Counted from the first letter of the stretch, positions 27,410-41,440 are shown. The stretch is DNA of 64,000 bases from Candidatus Bathyarchaeota archaeon (GCA_963717465.1 OY970340.1:2176001-2240000), one strand, 5' to 3'. Program-made: numbers and translations. Notes: generated by a model from the letters alone, not told the origin.

Positions 27410-27691
27410 TTGAGTCAATTCGTAGCCACGGTTAACATGTTTGTTGAATCCTCAGAGAAAGATAACGTTTTGATTGCACTCTCAAGAATCGATGCTATAA
27501 AAGAAGTTTATGAAGTAGCAGGGGAATATGACATTGTTTCCTTAATTTCAACTCCTGGCATGGAAGAGTTTCGAGAGCTATTACACAAAGAAATATTATC
27601 TATAAAAGGCATAAAAAGTACAGTTACAACTGTGATTTTGAAACTGCATGATAGACACGTTATCAAAAATATTTCAGAGAAAGGTATATAG
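27410..27691 (+). CDS. Stand-alone Lrp/AsnC ligand-binding (RAM) domain
   Basis: VYEVAGEYDI, I.GIKST.T; no HTH. Confidence 0.8.
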   Translation: MSQFVATVNMFVESSEKDNVLIALSRIDAIKEVYEVAGEYDIVSLISTPGMEEFRELLHKEILSIKGIKSTVTTVILKLHDRHVIKNISEKGI

Positions 27692-27730
27692 CGCACTTAA
27701 AATACCCAACCATGGGAAAGGAGACCATAT

Positions 27731-28039
27731 TTGCCTCGTTTATTCGCATTTGTTGATATCTTTGTTGAATCTCCAGAAATGGATAATGTGGTTTCTGCTC
27801 TTGCTAAATTAAAGAATCTGGAAGAATTGTATGAGGTAACTGGAGAATTTGACATAGTTACGCTTGTTTCAGCAACGGACATTGAAGAATTCCGTGACGT
27901 CCTTAAAAACAAGATAATGAAAATTAAAGGCGTGAAAAGTACTGTGAGCTCAGTAGTCCTCAAAGTCCATAAAGGACCAAGGTATGATGGAGGCTCCAAA
28001 GGAACGAACGCCACCAATCCGCATCTCCTTAAAACATAA
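27731..28039 (+). CDS. Stand-alone Lrp/AsnC ligand-binding (RAM) domain, paralogue
   Basis: LYEVTGEFDI, IKGVKST; no HTH. Confidence 0.8.
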   Translation: MPRLFAFVDIFVESPEMDNVVSALAKLKNLEELYEVTGEFDIVTLVSATDIEEFRDVLKNKIMKIKGVKSTVSSVVLKVHKGPRYDGGSKGTNATNPHLLKT

Positions 28040-31077: not shown

Positions 31078-31371
31078 ATGCGTCGTTCAAAACTTGAAAT
31101 GTATGTTGATATCTTGAAGGTATTAGCTCATAGAGGTCCATTAAAGTTAACCCATGTAATGTACAAGGCTAACGTTAACTGCAGTGTACTTAAGGAATAC
31201 TTAGATTTTCTTATTAAGCAGGGCTTAGTTGAAGAGCGTAATGTTGGTAAACGAAGAGTTGTTTATGCAGTTACTCAACGCGGCATCACTGTGCTTAAGT
31301 ACTTCAGAGAACTAAAGCAAGTACTTCCCATTGTTGAAGAAGCTAGAAACCAAGTACCAGTTCCTTACTAA
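31078..31371 (+). CDS. Winged-helix DNA-binding protein (HTH_45-like)
   Basis: MRRSKLE...DIL, THVMYKANVN, YLDFL...GL, Y.VT.RG. Confidence 0.85.
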   Translation: MRRSKLEMYVDILKVLAHRGPLKLTHVMYKANVNCSVLKEYLDFLIKQGLVEERNVGKRRVVYAVTQRGITVLKYFRELKQVLPIVEEARNQVPVPY

Positions 31372-31562: not shown

Positions 31563-31953
31563 TTGAGCAAAGAAGAAATACTAGGAAAAAAACCCTTAGC
31601 CATCCTAGAAAAAATAAAGGAAAACTTCGAAAGGCTAAATGAGAAAATGGAAGTAATGATCGAAATCCAGAGAAATTCAGGAACCCGAAAAGACAATCAA
31701 ATGTTACAAGACACATCACTTGATGTCATGACTTTATTAAATATGCCTGATCACCTTCGAAAGACCGCAATGACCATTTGCCGAAATGGCAGAGCGACAG
31801 CTGAAGAAATTTCTGAGCAAACGACTCGAGCTCGAGCAGTTGAAAGCGCGTATCTAAATCAATTAGTGATTATGGGTTATCTTAAAAAGGAAAGAAAAGG
31901 ACAGAAAGGCATACTTCTTCGTTGACAGGGACGCCCAAGAGGGAGAAAAATGA
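31563..31953 (+). CDS. Coiled-coil + winged-helix protein (frameshift near 31900; corrected stop overlaps the parA start)
   Basis: LL.MPDHLRKT, ATAEEIS..T.RARAVESAYLNQL; shifted frame ends RKAYFFVDRDAQEGEK* in an ATGA overlap at 31950-31953. Confidence 0.75.
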
Positions 31954-32729
31954 GCAAAATACTAGCTGTTCATTCATACAAAGGTGGAACAGGAAAAACT
32001 CTATTATCAGTAAACTTAGCTGCTACATTTGCAAAGCAAGGGAAAAAAGTTTGCGTTTTTGACTTAGATTTTAGAGCACCAAGCTTATTTTCTATCCTGA
32101 AAGTTGAGAATGCTGAATGCTGGTTTAACGATTATTTAAACAACACCTGCAACATTAACAAGACACTTATCGACCTGAGCAGCCGCATCCCGGGAGGAGG
32201 CCAATTCTTTACCGCACTAGCTAATCCTGCAACTGAAGCAATCCGAGATATGTCAGCAAAAGATCGAAAATGGGAAATGCGAGCGTTGGGACGTTTGTTA
32301 TCCCTTAGAAACTCACTATTAAACGAACAACATTTCGACTACTTAGTGTTTGATACAAGCCCTGGTTTACAATACTCATCAATAAACGCATTAGTGGCAG
32401 CCGACTTCGTAATTGTGGCAACAACAGGTGATAGATCAGACGTTGATGGAACAAAACGCATGCTACGCGAATTATACAACTTGTTCGAAAAGAAAACAGG
32501 CTTAGTCTTCAACAAAGTTCTAGACGCATCCTCAAAAGCCAAAAGAGATGAAATGAATTTGAAAGTCAAAGAAGTCTACCAGGTGCCCTTACTCGGGATG
32601 GTACCATGTTTCTGCGAAGTCTTGCGCGCTGAAGGAAACTTTATCTTTCCACAAGACAAACCTGACCACCCATTCACGAAGATTCTGGATGAAATTGCTA
32701 AAAAAATCGAAAACAACGATGTAAACTAA
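31950..32729 (+). CDS. ParA/MinD family ATPase
   Basis: Deviant Walker A KGGTGKT, DLDFRAP, FDTSPG, NKV. Confidence 0.88.
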   Translation: MSKILAVHSYKGGTGKTLLSVNLAATFAKQGKKVCVFDLDFRAPSLFSILKVENAECWFNDYLNNTCNINKTLIDLSSRIPGGGQFFTALANPATEAIRDMSAKDRKWEMRALGRLLSLRNSLLNEQHFDYLVFDTSPGLQYSSINALVAADFVIVATTGDRSDVDGTKRMLRELYNLFEKKTGLVFNKVLDASSKAKRDEMNLKVKEVYQVPLLGMVPCFCEVLRAEGNFIFPQDKPDHPFTKILDEIAKKIENNDVN

Positions 32730-32755
32730 GCTTCTCCTAAGATTTCCGATTTTTT

Positions 32756-32780
32756 GTATACAAAAGCATCAACGAAACAC
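32756..32780 (+). repeat. 25-bp dispersed box, copy 1 (GTATACAAAAGCATCAACGAAACAC)
   Basis: Starts 27 bp after the parA/minD stop; matches four other intergenic copies. Confidence 0.85.
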
Positions 32781-32800
32781 ACAAAAACTTAAGAACTCTC

Positions 32801-33451
32801 TTGAAACTAAGAATTTCAGGAATGTTCGTGGAAAAATCAGCAATCATTATAACAAGCGGAACATCAAACAGCATTAGTCAAGACGGCCTGCTAGAACTCC
32901 ATCATAAACCTCTAATTAATCATGTTTACGACGCAATTAAAACCCTTGTTGACGAAATAGTAATAGTCACAAAATCTAATGAAATAATAAAGAATTACAA
33001 GAAAAAAATACCAATAACAGCAAAGTTTGCAGTAAATGAATTCGACTCAAAAGGATTGTTAACTGATGCATTAACTGGTTTTAAAGCAGCACAAGGCAAG
33101 TATTCCTTACTTTTGTCTTATGATACGCCATTTGTTTCAAAAAAGGTTATCTCGCTACTTTTTGATTGCTGCATAGGTAAAACCGTGGCAATCCCCCGCT
33201 GGTCAATCGATAAAACCGAGCCATTACAAGCGGTGTACCAAACTAAACTGGTTCTTGAAGCCACAAATGAAGCTTTTGAGGCAGGAGAAACCGAATTAGA
33301 CGTAATAGTTGAACGACTCCGCGGCGTACGTTACATTTCCTCGCTCGTATTTGAGCAAATAGATCCGGAAATGCGCACGTTCTTTCGCATCAATACTCCG
33401 CAAGCTTTGAAAAAGGCCGAGTTAATGCTTACAAAGAAAAGTAAAAACTAA
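32801..33451 (+). CDS. mobA: Molybdenum cofactor guanylyltransferase-like protein
   Basis: KPLI.HV, DTPF, EPLQAVY, FF.INTP; N-terminal GG..RMG motif degenerate. Confidence 0.7.
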   Translation: MKLRISGMFVEKSAIIITSGTSNSISQDGLLELHHKPLINHVYDAIKTLVDEIVIVTKSNEIIKNYKKKIPITAKFAVNEFDSKGLLTDALTGFKAAQGKYSLLLSYDTPFVSKKVISLLFDCCIGKTVAIPRWSIDKTEPLQAVYQTKLVLEATNEAFEAGETELDVIVERLRGVRYISSLVFEQIDPEMRTFFRINTPQALKKAELMLTKKSKN

Positions 33452-34125
33452 CTAAGAACAGTACCAAACGAACCTTGTTAGTCTATTTCTGAATCATTGA
33501 GTACTTCTCGTTACCTAACTTAATTGAAAAGCCTGATCCTATTTTTCGAATAGTAACGAACCTTATATAACCATTCAGACCGTTTTTTGAAAGCCAAAAA
33601 AATGCTTGAAAAACCAGTCAATTTTTAAATCGTTAAGTCTTATTTGACCAGGCGGCTAATATTACGCCTGTGTTTTGCTTGAAATCATCTTATTTGCTAT
33701 GAAATGACCAACTTTCTAGATCTGATTAGTGAAATTGCTGCTTTCGGCTTTTTTTCTCTATTCTCTTTTAAGGACTTACGTGTTTATTCTATTAAGAGCT
33801 AGTAAAATCGCTCTCAAAGCGCTTTTGAAAAGCTTTTTAATTTTTGTGCGTTCCGAAAATTTGTCGAATAGACATTTTTTACAGCTTTAATGTAAATATT
33901 AATAATATACGAATGCTATAAATACATTAATTTTTAAATAATGGCTTCAATTCTGATTTAAAAGATCGGCAATTTACGAAGTGCACAGATTTTCAAAGAA
34001 ATTGACTTTGTAGTCTGTAATGCAAATGAAATGATTGGAAACGTATTTCAATATGTAGCTGCGAAATATTTTTGTTTAGTGAAACGATGAGAGGCAGTAT
34101 CTTGCTTAGAAGAGAAGTTAAGAGG

Positions 34126-34150
34126 GTGTTTTGGCGATGCTTTTGTATAC
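34126..34150 (-). repeat. 25-bp dispersed box, copy 2 (GTATACAAAAGCATCGCCAAAACAC)
   Basis: 3 mismatches to copy 1, inverted orientation. Confidence 0.85.
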
Positions 34151-34220
34151 CAATAAAGCAGAGTTTTGCTCTTAACATTGATTTTTCAGTTTATTTTAAA
34201 TGTTTTAGCTTATTTTATAG

Positions 34221-34928
34221 GTGTGCTCATTGAATTTTGAGGTAAATTTGTTAACTTCAGTATTAAAATTAACCCAATCACAGAATGCTTTAATTAAAGA
34301 TGTTAAAAATGACTCGAAACTTCCCGTAAGCACTACAATGATATTGCTTGAAAAGTTGCAAAGTGAGGAAACTGTTTATATTGAAGGTGAAAGTGTTAAA
34401 ATAGATTCTAAGAATCGTCTCAAATTGGCAATTAAAGCGGTTTCCTTAGGCGCTGACATAGAGCGAATTAGCAAGCTGCTATCTTGGATTGAATTTGAAG
34501 ATATGGCTGTAATGGCTTTGGAGAACAATCATTTTTCAGTAGAGAAGAATGTTCGTTTTAAAAGTTCTGATCGCAGATGGGAAATCGATGCAGTTGGCTG
34601 CAAGAAACCCCTTGTCATTTGCATAGACTGCAAACATTGGCAACGCGCGATTTCTCCCTCTGTTAAGGCTCGAATCGTTAATGCCCAGACCAGCCGTGCT
34701 AAAGCTTTGTCTGAAGCTTCCCCAAACGCCTCTATCAAATTAGACTACCAAAAATGGACCTGTGCCAAGTTCATGCCTGCCGTACTATCTCTTATTCCAA
34801 GCAATTCCAAGTTTTATAATAACGTACCCATTGTTCCAATACTGCAATTTCAAGATTTCCTTGATCAACTGCCTGCTTACGTAGACATGCTAAAAATATT
34901 CTACAAAACTTTTAGCCACTTGGGGTGA
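34221..34928 (+). CDS. PD-(D/E)XK restriction endonuclease-like protein (Mrr-like) with N-terminal helical domain
   Basis: W.EFE, RWEIDAVG, IDCKHW. Confidence 0.7.
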   Translation: MCSLNFEVNLLTSVLKLTQSQNALIKDVKNDSKLPVSTTMILLEKLQSEETVYIEGESVKIDSKNRLKLAIKAVSLGADIERISKLLSWIEFEDMAVMALENNHFSVEKNVRFKSSDRRWEIDAVGCKKPLVICIDCKHWQRAISPSVKARIVNAQTSRAKALSEASPNASIKLDYQKWTCAKFMPAVLSLIPSNSKFYNNVPIVPILQFQDFLDQLPAYVDMLKIFYKTFSHLG

Positions 34929-35046
34929 TCTTATTTTTTCTTAGAATTCTCCTGTAACTATAGAATCTCTTGTAAGTATCGAGTAGATAGAAGCTGCAAA
35001 GAAAAATTGTCTCCGTTGTCAAGCATAGGGAGTCTAGTAATAACTT

Positions 35047-36057
35047 TAGAAGTGTACACAATTAATTTTTTATCCTTTGAGTGCTAAATTAACTGTTGAG
35101 CAGGGCTGGGCTGGTACACTTAAACACTATTGGTTAGTATCTTAATGACAAAGGTGCCTAAAACCGTCAAATATTGTGTCAAACCCAGTACTTACTCACA
35201 GTTTTCAAGCTTTCTTCGCCAGCGATAAGCGCCCTTATCGTTTCAGCATCAAAACTTATCAAGCCAGCAATAACCATAGCCGCCTTCTTGACTAAGCCTC
35301 TTGGCCTAACCCAGCATTCATCCAAAACATTATCCTTGATATGCCCATTGAACTGCTTGAGAACATAACGTTTCTTCCTCAGAAGCATTCCAGATTCAAT
35401 TTTACAGCTTTTTCCGTTCTTGCGAGGATTATCAGCGATGACTGGCACTGCACCCATATCCCTGACAGCGTTAATATTACGCTTAGAGCAGTAGCCTGCA
35501 TCAGCCAAGACGTAATCAGCCTTCAAATCCCAAATCAACAGTGGAAGAAACGATCCATCATAACGATTGGTCGGCGTGACTAATGCTCGCAGTGGCAGTC
35601 CAAGCTGATTTACGGCGGCATGAAGTTTAAGGCCTTTGAACCTTCCTATGCCAGTGTGACCCCATCTTGCCTCCATATCATAGAGGTCAACGAGCGGCGT
35701 TGAATCAACGATGACAGCCTTTGTTGGCTCAATGAGCATGCATATCTGCAATGTTCACGAAAGTCTCCTCTAGAATGCTTAGGTAGCGCCTCCACTACCT
35801 TCCAATGGTGGTTCTATCTGGCATTTTGCATAATCCAAGCTTTCTTAACCGCAAAAAAATGCTTTTTCAAGTGCTCAACCAACCGCGTATCATTATCTAA
35901 TCCTTTCAATAGTGCTCTCACATACCCAAAACCAGGATTGCCAGCCTCTTTCGCTCAGCCGGAACTATCGCTTTATTGACTAAAAGCCTGACAAGCTTAC
36001 AGGCTTCCATAAAGACAAAAAAGCGCTAACTAGATTTTAAAATTATGCACACCTCTT
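35047..36057 (-). mobile_element. Degenerate DDE insertion sequence (~1 kb, IS4/IS5-like)
   Basis: Imperfect TIRs AGAAGTGTACACAATT (35048-35063) / AATTATGCACACCTCT (36041-36056), 13/16 match; flanking direct repeat ATAACTT at 35040-35046 and 36058-36064. Confidence 0.6.
35179..36010 (-). pseudogene. DDE transposase, frameshifted
   Basis: VDSTP, D.EARWG, G.KLH, ADAGY; the third catalytic Glu position reads RYVLKQFN; N-terminus broken across frames. Confidence 0.75.
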
Positions 36058-36246
36058 ATAACTTAATTAAGAATCAAAAAGCACTAACTGATAATCTGAT
36101 TGCTTTTTCGATAAATGATTTATTTTAAGAAATTAGGTTGAAATACTTATGATTTGAGCTAGCAAGTATGCAATTCAGTGACCATTTTTTTTAGTTAAGG
36201 ACCTGCGGGGTTAAAAAGTCGTTTTCCTTTAAGTTTTAGGGGAGTT

Positions 36247-36696
36247 TTAGGGGTAGCATGTTTCTATGTTTAGGTTTCCTCGGTCACGTTTGAGAATTCT
36301 GATTTTTTCTGGAATCTTATTCTTTTCCCAGTCTGTCCAACTAATTTCTTTAAACAGCCATCTTTTGCCTAGATGCGCTGCGACAACAGCATGTTTGTAC
36401 TTGTTGTCCGTTGGAATGAATTCATTTAAGAATCTGAAGAGTTTGTTTATTTGTTGGTTTGGGAAATATGCGTAATAAGTTACATTTTTAACTTCAAAAG
36501 CGTAGCTGTGCAATCCTTTGCGGGCAATGATGTCAGGCAATGGGTTGAGACTTGGATTGCTGACCGGTACTCGGACTGCGTTGTAACCTTTTTTCTGAAG
36601 AAGCTTTACGAGAACCGCTTCGCTATAGAAGCCTCTTTTGCGCCATCGGCGCAGTCTGACTTGGTCAAAGTCTTTACTCATAACATTGTGCTCCAA
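36247..36696 (-). CDS. hjc: Holliday junction resolvase Hjc-like nuclease
   Basis: G..SE..LV..L...GY.AVRVP.S, PDIIA, FEVK. Confidence 0.7.
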   Translation of the reverse strand: MEHNVMSKDFDQVRLRRWRKRGFYSEAVLVKLLQKKGYNAVRVPVSNPSLNPLPDIIARKGLHSYAFEVKNVTYYAYFPNQQINKLFRFLNEFIPTDNKYKHAVVAAHLGKRWLFKEISWTDWEKNKIPEKIRILKRDRGNLNIETCYP

Positions 36697-36752
36697 TCAA
36701 ATTTGTTAGCATGAATTGAAATAAAAACTATTGTAAAAAAAGCCTCTGAACA

Positions 36753-36777
36753 GTGTTGCGTTGATGCTTTTGTATTC
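36753..36777 (-). repeat. 25-bp dispersed box, copy 3 (GAATACAAAAGCATCAACGCAACAC)
   Basis: 2 mismatches to copy 1; left edge of the 2-kb ORF-free tract. Confidence 0.85.
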
Positions 36778-37030
36778 AAATTTCAGCTGAGCAAGTCACT
36801 GGTGAAGTTAGGTGATGGAAAGCGCATTAGGTAATATCTACATAACTGAGCACACAAAAGTGGATAGATACTTCCATAACAGACACCAAATAATAGAGCC
36901 TTAGCCTACTCTAAGTGCTAATAAACTTTGCAAACGCTTGAAAATATCGATAAAAACAGCTTTTTCCCGAGCACTAAATATGGCCAATTGCCTGGTGAAG
37001 CAGGTCATGACATTGTTTGTTCGCCAAGTT

Positions 37031-37056
37031 GTATACGAAAGCATCGTCAAAGTCAC
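37031..37056 (+). repeat. Dispersed box, copy 4 (GTATACGAAAGCATCGTCAAAGTCAC)
   Basis: 14/15 match in the core; tail more divergent, with a 1-nt insertion. Confidence 0.7.
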
Positions 37057-38618
37057 AATTCAATTATAACTTTGCCTGCTGCTCCTAGGAAAACTTTGTA
37101 GTTAGCGGCAATTAAAGTGGCCAGCAGATCGCACTCACAGTGCATTACTCATCAGTTTGAGTGTGTCGAAAAAATATTTTCATCAGTTCACTAACGACAA
37201 AGATGCAATTTAAAGAAGCAAAGTTTGCACTAAACACTTAAGTGCATCAAAAAGCAGTCGAAAACCTCGAAGTACTTTCGAAAAATCAGGTCAGAGCTTC
37301 GAATGGAGATTTTCGGAGGTACTTATATGAGGCCACGATTATCTCCATGCCTTGTCTCTAGGCAAAGCACTAAAACGGCTAAATTGGGCCCATTTTGGCA
37401 TTTTACTCCCGAATCAAGCAGTTTAAATGTCAGCTTTGGTTCAAAAAACTAGGCGAGTTTTTAGGTGCAACCATTCGGATAAAAACAGGCTTAATGGAGC
37501 CTATTTATTCAAAAATATGACTAAAAACTGGATGTTTTGTCAAAAATGACTTAACTATAAACCGTAACATTCAGGTATTAAAATTACGCATTTTCTTTAA
37601 TTTTACATTAAGGAATCTTAATCCTAAAGTAGGTTGCAGTGAAGGCTAAGGTAAGGCTTTCCGCCGCTAGGGTGAGAACGCAAGATAAGACGCCTAAAAA
37701 TGGGATCTCTTCGAAACCTCAATGCCACAATTCAGAGCAGCGTTCTCAAATCACCCAAAAATGCTCCTAAGACAAAGATCACCAACCACGTTACACCTTG
37801 TAGAATAAACACCCAAAAGAAGAAAGATTGAGCTATCGAAAACGCAAATAAAAGCGTTGAAAAAGGTTTGGCTCATTTGAACAAGTCTTCGGGTTTGAGA
37901 GACCCTGTTGAAGGGCAGCATGGGAGTTTCACAGATATACTTTCAGAAGCAGATTCAGTATATCTCTGAGTACGTAGCCTGCGCGAAAGCAGTGCTAAGT
38001 TGCTTTGGCGGCAATTAAGAAGATCGCATTGTACATTTCAAAATCCAAACTCTGTGAAGATGGAGACAACCGTCAAAGTCATTAGCCGCAATTTTAGATT
38101 TAACGACAGATATGTTTGCTTATTATTGAAAGTGTAATTAATTACAATTCCTCCTCAACAACCGCTTGTCGTCTGAATTACCTTTCTTATTTGTGAAGCT
38201 ATCCTGCAGTTAACCTCCTCTCATTTTATCGAGGAGCACTTATGTTTGACCGTTTGCATCTTCGAAAAACGATTATTTAACGCTTTAACTGTTTTTACCG
38301 GCATTAGCATAAATGGCACCAAAACGGAAAACCGGTTGAAAAGCATATGTGACTTAAGTAAGGAAATCGATTCACCTATCATCAATTACTTAACAGTTTA
38401 ATCGCAGATCGCTCGGATAAGGATTAGGGAATAATTGAAAAGTCAGTGTAATACACGCTGGAAAGTTTAGGAGACTTCACTGTTGCTTGCGAGAAAATTA
38501 CGAGTTAAATGACGACTCAAGTAAGTTCTTAGGAGCTGTTTAGCAATCCAAAAAATAATGTGTATTTAATTTTAAAGTGATGAGTTTGTGCTTCAAAGAT
38601 ATGCTTTGTTTATTCACG

Positions 38619-38643
38619 GTATACAAAAGCATCAACAAAACAA
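38619..38643 (+). repeat. 25-bp dispersed box, copy 5 (GTATACAAAAGCATCAACAAAACAA)
   Basis: 2 mismatches to copy 1; right edge of the ORF-free tract. Confidence 0.85.
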
Positions 38644-38713: not shown

Positions 38714-39130
38714 ATGTCTTCTTTTAGAGTTATGAATAAGAAAATTAATTTTGATACGCAGGGTGAAATTGATTTTGTTGATTTGTCTGATCGTGTTCGA
38801 GAAGCGATTGTTGAGTCAGACGTTAGTAATGGAATAGTTCATGTTTTTGCTCCTCACGCGACGGGCATTCTTATTTTAACCGAAAATGATGATGCTTTGT
38901 TAAGCGATATCAAGAATTTTCTTGAAGGCTTGGCGCCGAAACATAAGTCATATCAGCATCCGTCTAACGCGCATGCTCATTTGCGTTCCATACTTTTTCC
39001 GCCTGATAAAACTCTGCCTATTATAAATGGTAGAGTCGAATTGGGCACTTGGCAGTCTTTAATTTTTGTGGAAACAGATGTTTATCCCAGGCGACGAACT
39101 GTAATTATCCAAGTAATCGGCGAAAAATAA
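38714..39130 (+). CDS. yjbQ: YjbQ / UPF0047 family protein
   Basis: PHAT, NAHAHLRS, LGTWQ. Confidence 0.9.
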   Translation: MSSFRVMNKKINFDTQGEIDFVDLSDRVREAIVESDVSNGIVHVFAPHATGILILTENDDALLSDIKNFLEGLAPKHKSYQHPSNAHAHLRSILFPPDKTLPIINGRVELGTWQSLIFVETDVYPRRRTVIIQVIGEK

Positions 39131-39622
39131 TTTTCTTTTTATGATACTACTTTCAAGATCAGCTGAGTCTCTAATTTTGAATTTTAAGTTTATTCACTTT
39201 TAAAGCCTTCAAACTTCTATGACTTTCAAATTCAGTTCAGTTCTTTTGGCTTTGTTTCGTTTTTTCTTTTACTTTTATTCGTTTCGCGTATCGCGAAAAT
39301 TGATCAAGAGGGGCATTTTTTAAATATATCTGTAACTTTTCTTGATAATAGGCTATAGCTATTTAACAATTTAATGTAAATAATGTATGTTCGAATAAAT
39401 TTCGAAACTCCCTAAGGGAAAGAACTAACTGAAAGAGATTGAATTGAAGAGCGACTATCGCTAAAAAAGGCCGTAAATACCCATTTAATAACCGCCGGCA
39501 TGTCAATTTGACATGCAAAAACTCAATTGTCGACCCAATTAGAGCGAAAGACCAAGTTATTTGTAAGTTTTTAGCTTTAAAATCCATGATTATATATAAT
39601 TCGTTGTATTTCGAATAAAAAC

Positions 39623-40735: not shown

Positions 40736-41440
40736 ATGAGAGCGATAATCATGGAAAAGTGGCTCATTTTTGGAAAAATGAGGAACATAAGAAAAATCTG
40801 GATGACATTCCAAAAACCAGATATGAATAAGACAAAAGCAGAACCTACTGCTAAGTCAAATATCAACAAGGCTGGGAGTTACAAGGCTTTAGATGGCAAC
40901 AAAACAAGTATATTCAACAAGGCTGGGAGTTACAAGGTTTTAGATGGCAACAAAACAAGTATATCTGCTAAGGTTAAAAATCCAAGAATCACCAAAAGAT
41001 TGCTAATCGGTATAGCAACATTGGCGATAATTGCCGTTGCTTTGACCACGCTAACATCAGGTTTGTTGGCTGCTCAACAACCTATATCATCAAATGGCAA
41101 TATTCAAACCTCAGTAAACATCGGCGTCTATTCTAATTCAGCAGCCACGATAGTGTTATCAAGCCTTAGTTGGGGAACTGTAACGCCGGGTACAACTACA
41201 AATCAAACCATCTACATAAAAAACACAGGCAACGCAGCCGAAACACTTAACATGACAACTTCTGGCTGGAGTCCATCGTATGCAAGTTCATACTTAACCT
41301 TAAGTTGGAATCAAGAGGGAAGCGCCATAGCGTCAGGTTCTATTGTAAGCGCAACTATTACTCTTTCAGCAGCATCGAGTACAGGCAACTTGACTAGTTT
41401 TAGCTTCAACATAATTATAACAGGAACCCAACAAAGCTAA
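40736..41440 (+). CDS. Membrane-anchored/secreted Ser-Thr-rich beta protein (start uncertain)
   Basis: Single hydrophobic segment followed by WG.VTPG...IYIKNTGN and FSF.I.ITG. Confidence 0.7.
   Translation: MRAIIMEKWLIFGKMRNIRKIWMTFQKPDMNKTKAEPTAKSNINKAGSYKALDGNKTSIFNKAGSYKVLDGNKTSISAKVKNPRITKRLLIGIATLAIIAVALTTLTSGLLAAQQPISSNGNIQTSVNIGVYSNSAATIVLSSLSWGTVTPGTTTNQTIYIKNTGNAAETLNMTTSGWSPSYASSYLTLSWNQEGSAIASGSIVSATITLSAASSTGNLTSFSFNIIITGTQQS
40863..40964 (+). repeat. 51-bp tandem duplication (17 aa, NKAGSYKxLDGNKTSIx)
   Basis: Two copies differing at one base. Confidence 0.9.

Follow-up and report, generated by a model that had tools for sequence, protein, structure and literature searches.

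An asymmetric 25-bp box clustered at the replication terminus in one order of Bathyarchaeia

Introduction

The completion of replication and the separation of sister chromosomes are largely open matters in archaea. A stretch of 64,000 nucleotides from Candidatus Bathyarchaeota archaeon (GCA_963717465.1, OY970340.1:2176001-2240000), called the window below and numbered from its first letter, raises the question of what a cluster of five copies of an asymmetric 25-bp box may be doing on an archaeal chromosome. The original prediction placed the box beside genes for a winged helix-turn-helix (wHTH) protein and a ParA/MinD-family ATPase, and read the cluster as a candidate segregation locus or as an origin without the usual origin recognition boxes (ORBs). 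Here the box is described as an asymmetric motif found throughout one order of Bathyarchaeia, and its cluster sits at the replication terminus, opposite the cdc6 origin. The order keeps a precise, oriented terminus sequence, apparently without XerA.

The box and its distribution

All five copies were found exactly at the places and on the strands predicted. Copy 1 (32756..32780, +) is the outer left one and points at the core, a single-copy element described below; the same position is used in relatives. Copy B (34126..34150, -) lies 5' of a nuclease gene but is reversed and points away from the core, an arrangement that recurs in all 20 genus loci holding this gene. Copies C (36753..36777, -) and D (37031..37055, +, degenerate) form the left and right halves of a back-to-back pair, and copy E (38619..38643, +), located 5' of yjbQ, points away from the core.

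The host genome is one contig of 3,053,889 bp. No copies had been seen elsewhere in the window, and a matrix scan extended this to the entire genome, in which no other good copy was found: with a weight matrix derived from 111 sites, four copies score 33-44 bits and nothing else reaches 14 bits. The 14-mer TATACAAAAGCATC, with at most one mismatch, occurs seven times in the genome, five times at the locus and twice elsewhere without the AAACAC tail. Copy D scores only 13.7 bits with a softer matrix, for which shuffled-matrix controls gave maxima of 13.7-22.2, and it was accepted as a box because it is syntenic with strong copies in relatives, its sole validation. The box is rich in information over about 31 bp and near zero beyond, and within the genus the flanks of different sites are unrelated. 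It is neither a palindrome nor a direct repeat (8 of 25 positions are self-complementary), and its claimed unlikeness to ORB, parS and dif was supported. A sigma-70 scan gave counts at chance level.

The genomes sampled were related and mostly incomplete ones. The full box pattern was present in 23 of 24 congeners and in 108 of 120 family genomes, while the 18-bp form of the box was found in 115/120 genomes of the order, against 3/100 from other orders, and in all 19 genomes of the family labelled f11. Across eight families there is hardly any change in the first 15-18 bases, and the spacing of the back-to-back pair is fixed; the two together point to selection on the box. The copy number per genome ranges from 1 to 20. 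In 20 congener loci a fixed array of boxes surrounds the nuclease, hjc, yjbQ and nnrE genes. The genes beside the boxes differ from family to family, and in the host genome nnrE has been relocated about 70 kb away (2.285 Mb), with no box there; thus it is position, not gene, that holds the boxes. The claim of a clustered chromosomal site of undescribed type therefore stands, since the site is real, conserved and not a simple operator. Scanning the genome and its relatives for the box, as had been proposed, gave the expected single cluster here, but not the expected linkage to the wHTH-parA genes, because family f11 has boxes without the wHTH gene.

Position on the chromosome

Two cdc6 genes are present elsewhere in the host genome; none lies in the window, as first stated. 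Upstream of cdc6-1 (685-686 kb) there are ORBs with G-strings and a 90% AT tract, and this arrangement recurs in 5/5 relatives. With gene strand corrected for, the cumulative T-A skew of fourfold sites has its minimum at 685,923, that is at cdc6-1, and its maximum at 2,221,075; the score was reached in none of 500 permutations, and a model with a single origin at cdc6 scored 5765, compared with 102 for two origins. Splits based on 4-6-mers placed origin and terminus at 692 kb and 2,219 kb, with TGGT as the top leading-strand 4-mer. No usable signal came from plain cumulative GC skew, and G-C skew of fourfold sites, taken by itself, put the best origin elsewhere (1,240 kb); agreement with the cdc6 origin is limited to the T-A, keto and k-mer measures.

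The core lies 0.5 kb off the exact antipode of oriC. In five single-contig family genomes of three genera, host included, the angle between core and origin is 179.9, 176.5, 174.2, 178.9 and 175.4°, and the pair-origin angle is about 177° in G040 of family f7 (hand arithmetic). Over the order, the cluster is found at 174-180° in 6/8 single-contig genomes, host included; all these angles take the single contigs to be closed circles.

Back-to-back pair, spacer and core

The smallest unit shared between genomes is the back-to-back pair, whose boxes are 200-340 bp (about 250 bp) apart with a conserved spacer between them. In the window this unit spans 36753-37055, and the non-coding spacer between C and D (36778..37030) carries the blocks TGGTGA, GTAATAC, ACCA/TCACC and TTAGCCTAC, which are conserved in the host family and in family f7 (alignment of 35 pairs). 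About 250 bp to the right of the pair is the core (37296..37351, about 55 bp), overlooked by the original prediction, with imperfect inverted arms CATGGA...TCCATG and an AT-rich centre. The core was matched in 83/120 family genomes, with one copy in 78 and two in 5, and a variant core was seen in 6/6 further family loci examined; among 115 genomes from other families none gave a match. Just left of the core are two CGAA half-sites (37266..37285, +), set roughly one helical turn from each other, and a phased AA/TT tract (37361..37620) lies to the right of the core, with a best period of 10.0 bp over 18 loci. Another conserved element, CGAAAA..TCGAA..CATTTTTTACA (33854..33883, +), is found left of copy B, and a block similar to it adjoins the pair in family f7.

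Several other roles for these elements were considered and rejected. A coding role for the core was discarded on inspection, its variation not being synonymous. A structured RNA at the locus found no Rfam match, and compensatory change was seen in 0/13 predicted RNA pairs of the core and 0/5 of the spacer. The core could have been a lon promoter, a LonB-like gene lying 3' of it in 17/25 loci, but this gene is missing in the host genome, where the core is kept.

As separate observations, the LonB-like membrane protease gene (L116:10312-12561 and 16 other family loci) starts 290-400 bp past the core, a placement seen in most other family genera examined. A second core-like copy is located about 80 kb from cdc6-1 in L120 (G183:C1, ~512 kb), among unrelated genes and without boxes, in a bin with 9% contamination, and G224 has two cores 460 bp apart.

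Orientation of the copies

Orientation was tallied among the matches listed only, with coordinates entered by hand. For distant boxes, the tally covered 49 sites on cdc6 contigs from 29 genomes, and 48 of them face the origin, at 9-507 kb, the exception being about 1 kb from the origin; the same holds for 3/3 distant boxes in G040 and 3/3 in G360. These sites represent about 18 gene contexts by hand count, roughly half located before the start of a gene in the same direction and half facing a gene end, and orientation therefore follows the replichore, not the neighbouring gene.

For core-proximal boxes, 153 sites in 43 genomes were tallied. At less than 0.45 kb from the core, 12 point towards it and 5 away; at 0.45-3 kb the direction is reversed, with 3 towards and 41 away; at 5-15 kb all 43 point towards the core and none away.

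A possible role at the terminus

What, then, are the boxes for? A protein very probably binds at them, and a role in organising the terminus is likely on the evidence of position and orientation. The reading that we favour, and to which we give about an even chance, is that the boxes are sites for a protein that organises the last-copied DNA at the terminus as an oriented roadblock or anchor, probably for loop extrusion by SMC (structural maintenance of chromosomes) complexes. The SMC roadblock mechanism itself is speculative and is offered by analogy. An SMC roadblock is conceivable because Smc and ScpA are encoded in the host genome (SMC_N, SMC_hinge and ScpA at ~321-325 kb), and a direction-sensitive barrier is favoured because it is compatible with all three orientation classes. 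Under such a mechanism the putative box-bound protein would block or anchor extruders according to their direction; those coming in along either arm would be halted at the core by the inner back-to-back boxes, while the outer inward-facing boxes and the origin-facing distant ones would bound small terminus and origin domains. The region so insulated, with its Hjc-like resolvase gene, might then serve fork fusion and sister separation without Xer/dif. Precedents exist in Thermococcus, where SMC stalls on both sides of a ~1.9-kb dif intergenic region, and in bacteria, where MatP and XerD keep SMC off the termini (PMC11840125). It is also possible, and we put it forward tentatively, that the order has replaced Xer/dif by a direction-sensitive box code, either a CTCF-like SMC barrier or the first archaeal fork trap, in which a single protein would read the box back-to-back at the terminus and convergent around terminus and origin.

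A number of observations weigh against the terminus-organising reading. The orientation logic is borrowed from CTCF, from which orientation-dependent SMC block is known, and its transfer to the boxes is speculative. No box-binding protein was found among the candidates profiled (the wHTH encoded at 31563, the protein encoded at 31078 and the nuclease). Orientation is mixed at 3-5 kb from the core (16 towards, 21 away) and at 15-80 kb (9 towards, 3 away), and the tally omits a weak G001 match that is directed away from the origin. The host genome, G236 and G237 have no origin-side copies, which are therefore dispensable. Many of the sites counted are orthologues of one another, and four related ones in G239 share a longer downstream flank of about 70 bp or more, so the independent events are far fewer than the counts. 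The reverse strand of the box is G+T-rich and the genome strand skew is 2.7%, which by estimate would favour the observed orientation about 2:1. Many terminal boxes lie just 5' of promoter-like sequence, in the direction of the gene. Among single-contig genomes, the only box of G092 (family f6) adjoins hjc and lies about 150° from the origin, and a box cluster is lacking in G089, where the point opposite cdc6-1 coincides with the two ends of contig G089:C1 (1,497,484 bp), which looks as though assembly had broken off at the terminus.

An additional, short SMC-like operon with a kleisin of the Nse4_C type and a third gene, which we take to be coalescin/Smc5-6-like, was also seen (L266:2829-6233, ~1.79 Mb; L182:13067-16500). 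A few kb separate it from the terminus genes in two f11 genomes, G034 and G059.

Alternative explanations

The main rival is a polar fork trap of the Ter kind, which we regard as unlikely, in which a monomeric terminator would bind the box, the C/D pair would admit forks and block their exit, and the distant copies would stand in the permissive orientation. The site is asymmetric and about as long as Ter, the minimal common unit consists of two opposed boxes at the antipode, and distant copies are oriented alike with respect to the replichore, much as the ter sites of E. coli fall into two opposed groups (PMC10331603). The inner and distant boxes fit two opposed groups of one orientation each, but the 5-15 kb sites run the opposite way: the 43 inward-facing copies listed there are non-permissive on both sides of the core, so that efficient blocks would stop forks short and leave several kb unreplicated. 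In Sulfolobus, moreover, replication ends by stochastic fork collision, with dif elsewhere (PMC3020120), and no terminator gene turned up here, though no search aimed at Tus/RTP was made. A recombination locus, with the core as a dif-like crossover site for dimer resolution at the terminus and the boxes as accessory sites, would account for a core that is single-copy in 78 of the 83 matching genomes and lies at 174-180° in five single-contig genomes, and 8/11 bases of the core centre agree with one arm of dif from Thermococcus kodakarensis (PMC11840125). Short tyrosine recombinases of the catalytic-domain type occur in 21/25 genomes of family f7, often within 1 kb of the pair. We nevertheless hold this explanation to be improbable. 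XerA exceeded the cutoff of NCBIfam NF040815 in 0/5 single-contig genomes (best 98 against 220 bits; 4/14 control genomes pass), and the two host integrases compared match those of congeners at no more than 49% identity, while housekeeping orthologues between congeners are mostly 67-91% identical and 77% is the figure for one integrase pair taken from two other genomes. In the host family the short recombinase was found in 9/76 genomes only, the host genome not among them. The TAA-N6-8-TTA dyad that defines archaeal dif (PMC11840125) is absent from the core, with no conserved candidate in the window stretch or in nine related loci, and in 6/6 variant cores the dif-like arm is altered while the outer arms persist. 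The core was accordingly rejected as a canonical dif, with neither XerA over the cutoff nor the dyad.

That the boxes are operators of a transcription factor, ordinary or cell-cycle, acting on hjc, yjbQ, gdh-GINS-MCM and others, would explain why a box lies just 5' of promoter-like sequence, in gene direction, at hjc (19 loci), yjbQ (13) and gdh (7). The original prediction had kept an ordinary operator as its alternative. This is improbable as well, for the distance from box to promoter-like element varies, the box stands in reverse at the nuclease gene (20 loci) and at nnrE (17), in about half of the distinct distant contexts it faces the end of a gene, the adjacent genes are functionally unrelated, the host orthologues of gdh, mazG and nnrE have no box, and orientation tracks the replichore. 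The sharing of at least ~70 bp of downstream flank by the four G239 copies and the spread in copy number would suit a remnant end of a mobile repeat, inserted with strand bias at forks and gathering at terminus and origin with no host function; we give this little credence, since in the host genus information is near zero outside ~31 bp, the first bases and the pair spacing are constrained, and a scan of viral contigs returned 43 single 18-mer matches, about chance level by estimate, none of which extends into the tail.

The centromere originally proposed, in which the 31563 wHTH would bind the boxes and the ParA/MinD ATPase would segregate in the manner of SegAB, is largely refuted by gene profiles and now seems very improbable. 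The ATPase gene (31950..32729, +; KGGTGKT motif, AAA_31/CbiA) is a frequent neighbour of the boxes, being single-copy and conserved in 111/120 family genomes and, where gene and core share a contig, no more than 15 kb from the core (48 of 57 genomes), and its start is overlapped by the coiled-coil/wHTH gene (31563..31953, +), which is frameshifted in the assembly; the frameshift and the ATGA overlap were confirmed against three orthologues. The ATPase is separable from the boxes, however. The box is present in all 19 f11 genomes while the wHTH gene is found in 0/19 and the ATPase in 0/5 tested; the wHTH query matches 43/100 genomes of other orders, which are without the box; and in the host genus the two genes drift by 20-286 kb from boxes that keep their place. 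They are inside the 20-kb box-locus stretch in only 4/21 genus loci. Among solved structures the ATPase is closest to MinD proteins, the main cluster lies opposite oriC instead of near it, and SegB is a ribbon-helix-helix protein, with segS of Saci 7.6% of the genome from an origin (PMC12139799). Extremely improbable, finally, is a second, non-ORB origin at the cluster, the other function first suggested. Boxes inverted about non-coding DNA, and a conserved inverted repeat present once, do recall origin anatomy, but the skew runs in two segments, not four, and the single-origin model is the one that scores well; the skew reversal at the locus, proposed as a check for an origin, is a maximum and marks the terminus. 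The C-D spacer is 61% AT, about the genome average, and the skew minimum, the ORBs and the AT-rich unwinding element all lie at 686-687 kb, at the canonical origin by cdc6-1.

In genus g16 of family f7, a catalytic-domain-only tyrosine recombinase of 231-238 aa lies inside the back-to-back box pair (L170:11599-12312, +; L176:13543-14235, -; L178:10995-11687, -), between two dif-like palindromes with arms TAACAGTT/AACTGTTA; it could be an Xer-like module or a mini mobile element. Other genera have two further types of short recombinase at the pair (L172, L177).

Comparison with known systems

The box resembles bacterial terminus sites, but on the features tested it does not behave as dif, a Ter trap, a SegAB/ParABS site or an origin. 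With MatP-matS and with SMC unloading by XerD it shares repeated sites for a putative terminus protein that would shape chromosome architecture rather than transcription. The matS site is a short palindrome spread over hundreds of kb, whereas the box is asymmetric, packed within ~10 kb and also found near the origin. The Tus-ter and RTP-ter sites are likewise asymmetric, of ~23-30 bp, several in number, opposed across the terminus and oriented by replichore (PMC10331603); here, in contrast, there is an outer ring of opposite copies 5-15 kb from the core, and distant copies near the origin.

The dif boundary of Thermococcus kodakarensis resembles this locus in its large intergenic region (~1.9 kb there, ~2 kb here), its single-copy inverted-repeat site, an encoded SMC and a proposed role in sister resolution, but it has a canonical 11-6-11 dif that binds XerA, and Smc-ScpAB is stalled there by the nucleoid protein TrmBL2, no repeated motif being reported for it (PMC11840125). 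Here XerA was not found in five single-contig genomes, the core fails as a dif, and there is a long asymmetric motif with oriented distant copies. Archaeal XerA/dif with polarised words also offers a single-copy site at the skew reversal and the word TGGT (PMC2958812, PMC5357621), while here no XerA passes the cutoff, no TAA-N6-8-TTA dyad is present, and the polarised element is 25 bp long and rare. In SegAB/segS of Sulfolobales, sites clustered within ~20 kb are accompanied by distal ones (PMC12139799, PMC12858884), and the gene of a deviant Walker A ATPase overlaps that of a small DNA-binding protein, as it does here; the boxes differ in being intergenic, at the terminus and without family-wide co-occurrence with the ATPase-wHTH genes, whose adaptor is winged-helix and not ribbon-helix-helix.

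The literature covered, mostly freely accessible papers without their supplements, held no description of the box, of a Bathyarchaeia terminus element or of such an archaeal signal. The one archaeal SMC boundary described so far relies on a nucleoid protein beside dif (PMC11840125). The box can serve as DNA bait in a search for its protein, its exact coordinates are suited to chromosome conformation capture (3C) and fork-pausing tests, and in the fragmented genomes of the order it marks the terminus and the direction to the origin.

Neighbouring genes and candidate box readers

Copy 1 starts at the 27th base past the parA stop, a gap of 26 nt, which agrees with the 27 bp first reported. The 31563 wHTH was rejected as box reader, its gene profile not tracking the box. 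The Sso10a/HTH_45-family winged-helix gene at 31078..31371 (+), assigned by profile matches, was likewise set aside, for only paralogue-level matches (no more than 49% identity) were found in five f11 genomes. The gene at 34221..34928 (+) encodes a winged helix joined to a PD-(D/E)xK nuclease of Mrr/NERD type according to its profile and structure model; the model (pLDDT 89) gave only generic structural matches to wHTH and PD-(D/E)xK folds. This nuclease was rejected as well: it is class-wide (136/151), which makes it probably not the reader, and the same query did not find it in three box-bearing genomes.

The Hjc-like Holliday junction resolvase gene (36247..36696, -) matches Pfam Hjc and scores 55 bits against an NCBIfam cutoff of 70; it is the only such match in the genome, without a paralogue, and lies near the core in 24/25 loci. 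Other genes are yjbQ (UPF0047; 38714..39130, +), a conserved neighbour, a MobA-like NTP transferase gene recognised by profile (32801..33451, +), and a remnant of a DDE transposase (35179..35751, -) specific to the host genome. Two tandem genes at 27410-28039 each encode only the ligand-binding domain of Lrp/AsnC, and similar genes occur beside box clusters of congeners.

In the host genome (G000), the essential genes cdc6-2 (1.49 Mb), smc (321 kb) and nnrE (2.285 Mb) are split by single-base indels, and so is the gene for the small subunit of polD (684 kb). So many split essential genes suggest errors of long-read assembly, of which the 31563 frameshift is probably one.

Two further repeats were noticed in the window. 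A 41-nt inverted repeat, 90% complementary, joins 32535-32575 in the parA coding region with 39213-39253, intergenic and past yjbQ; it may be an antisense element, or a product of chance in sequence of low complexity. At 40863-40964, inside the 234-aa open reading frame at 40736, a stretch of 51 nt is duplicated in tandem with 98% identity.

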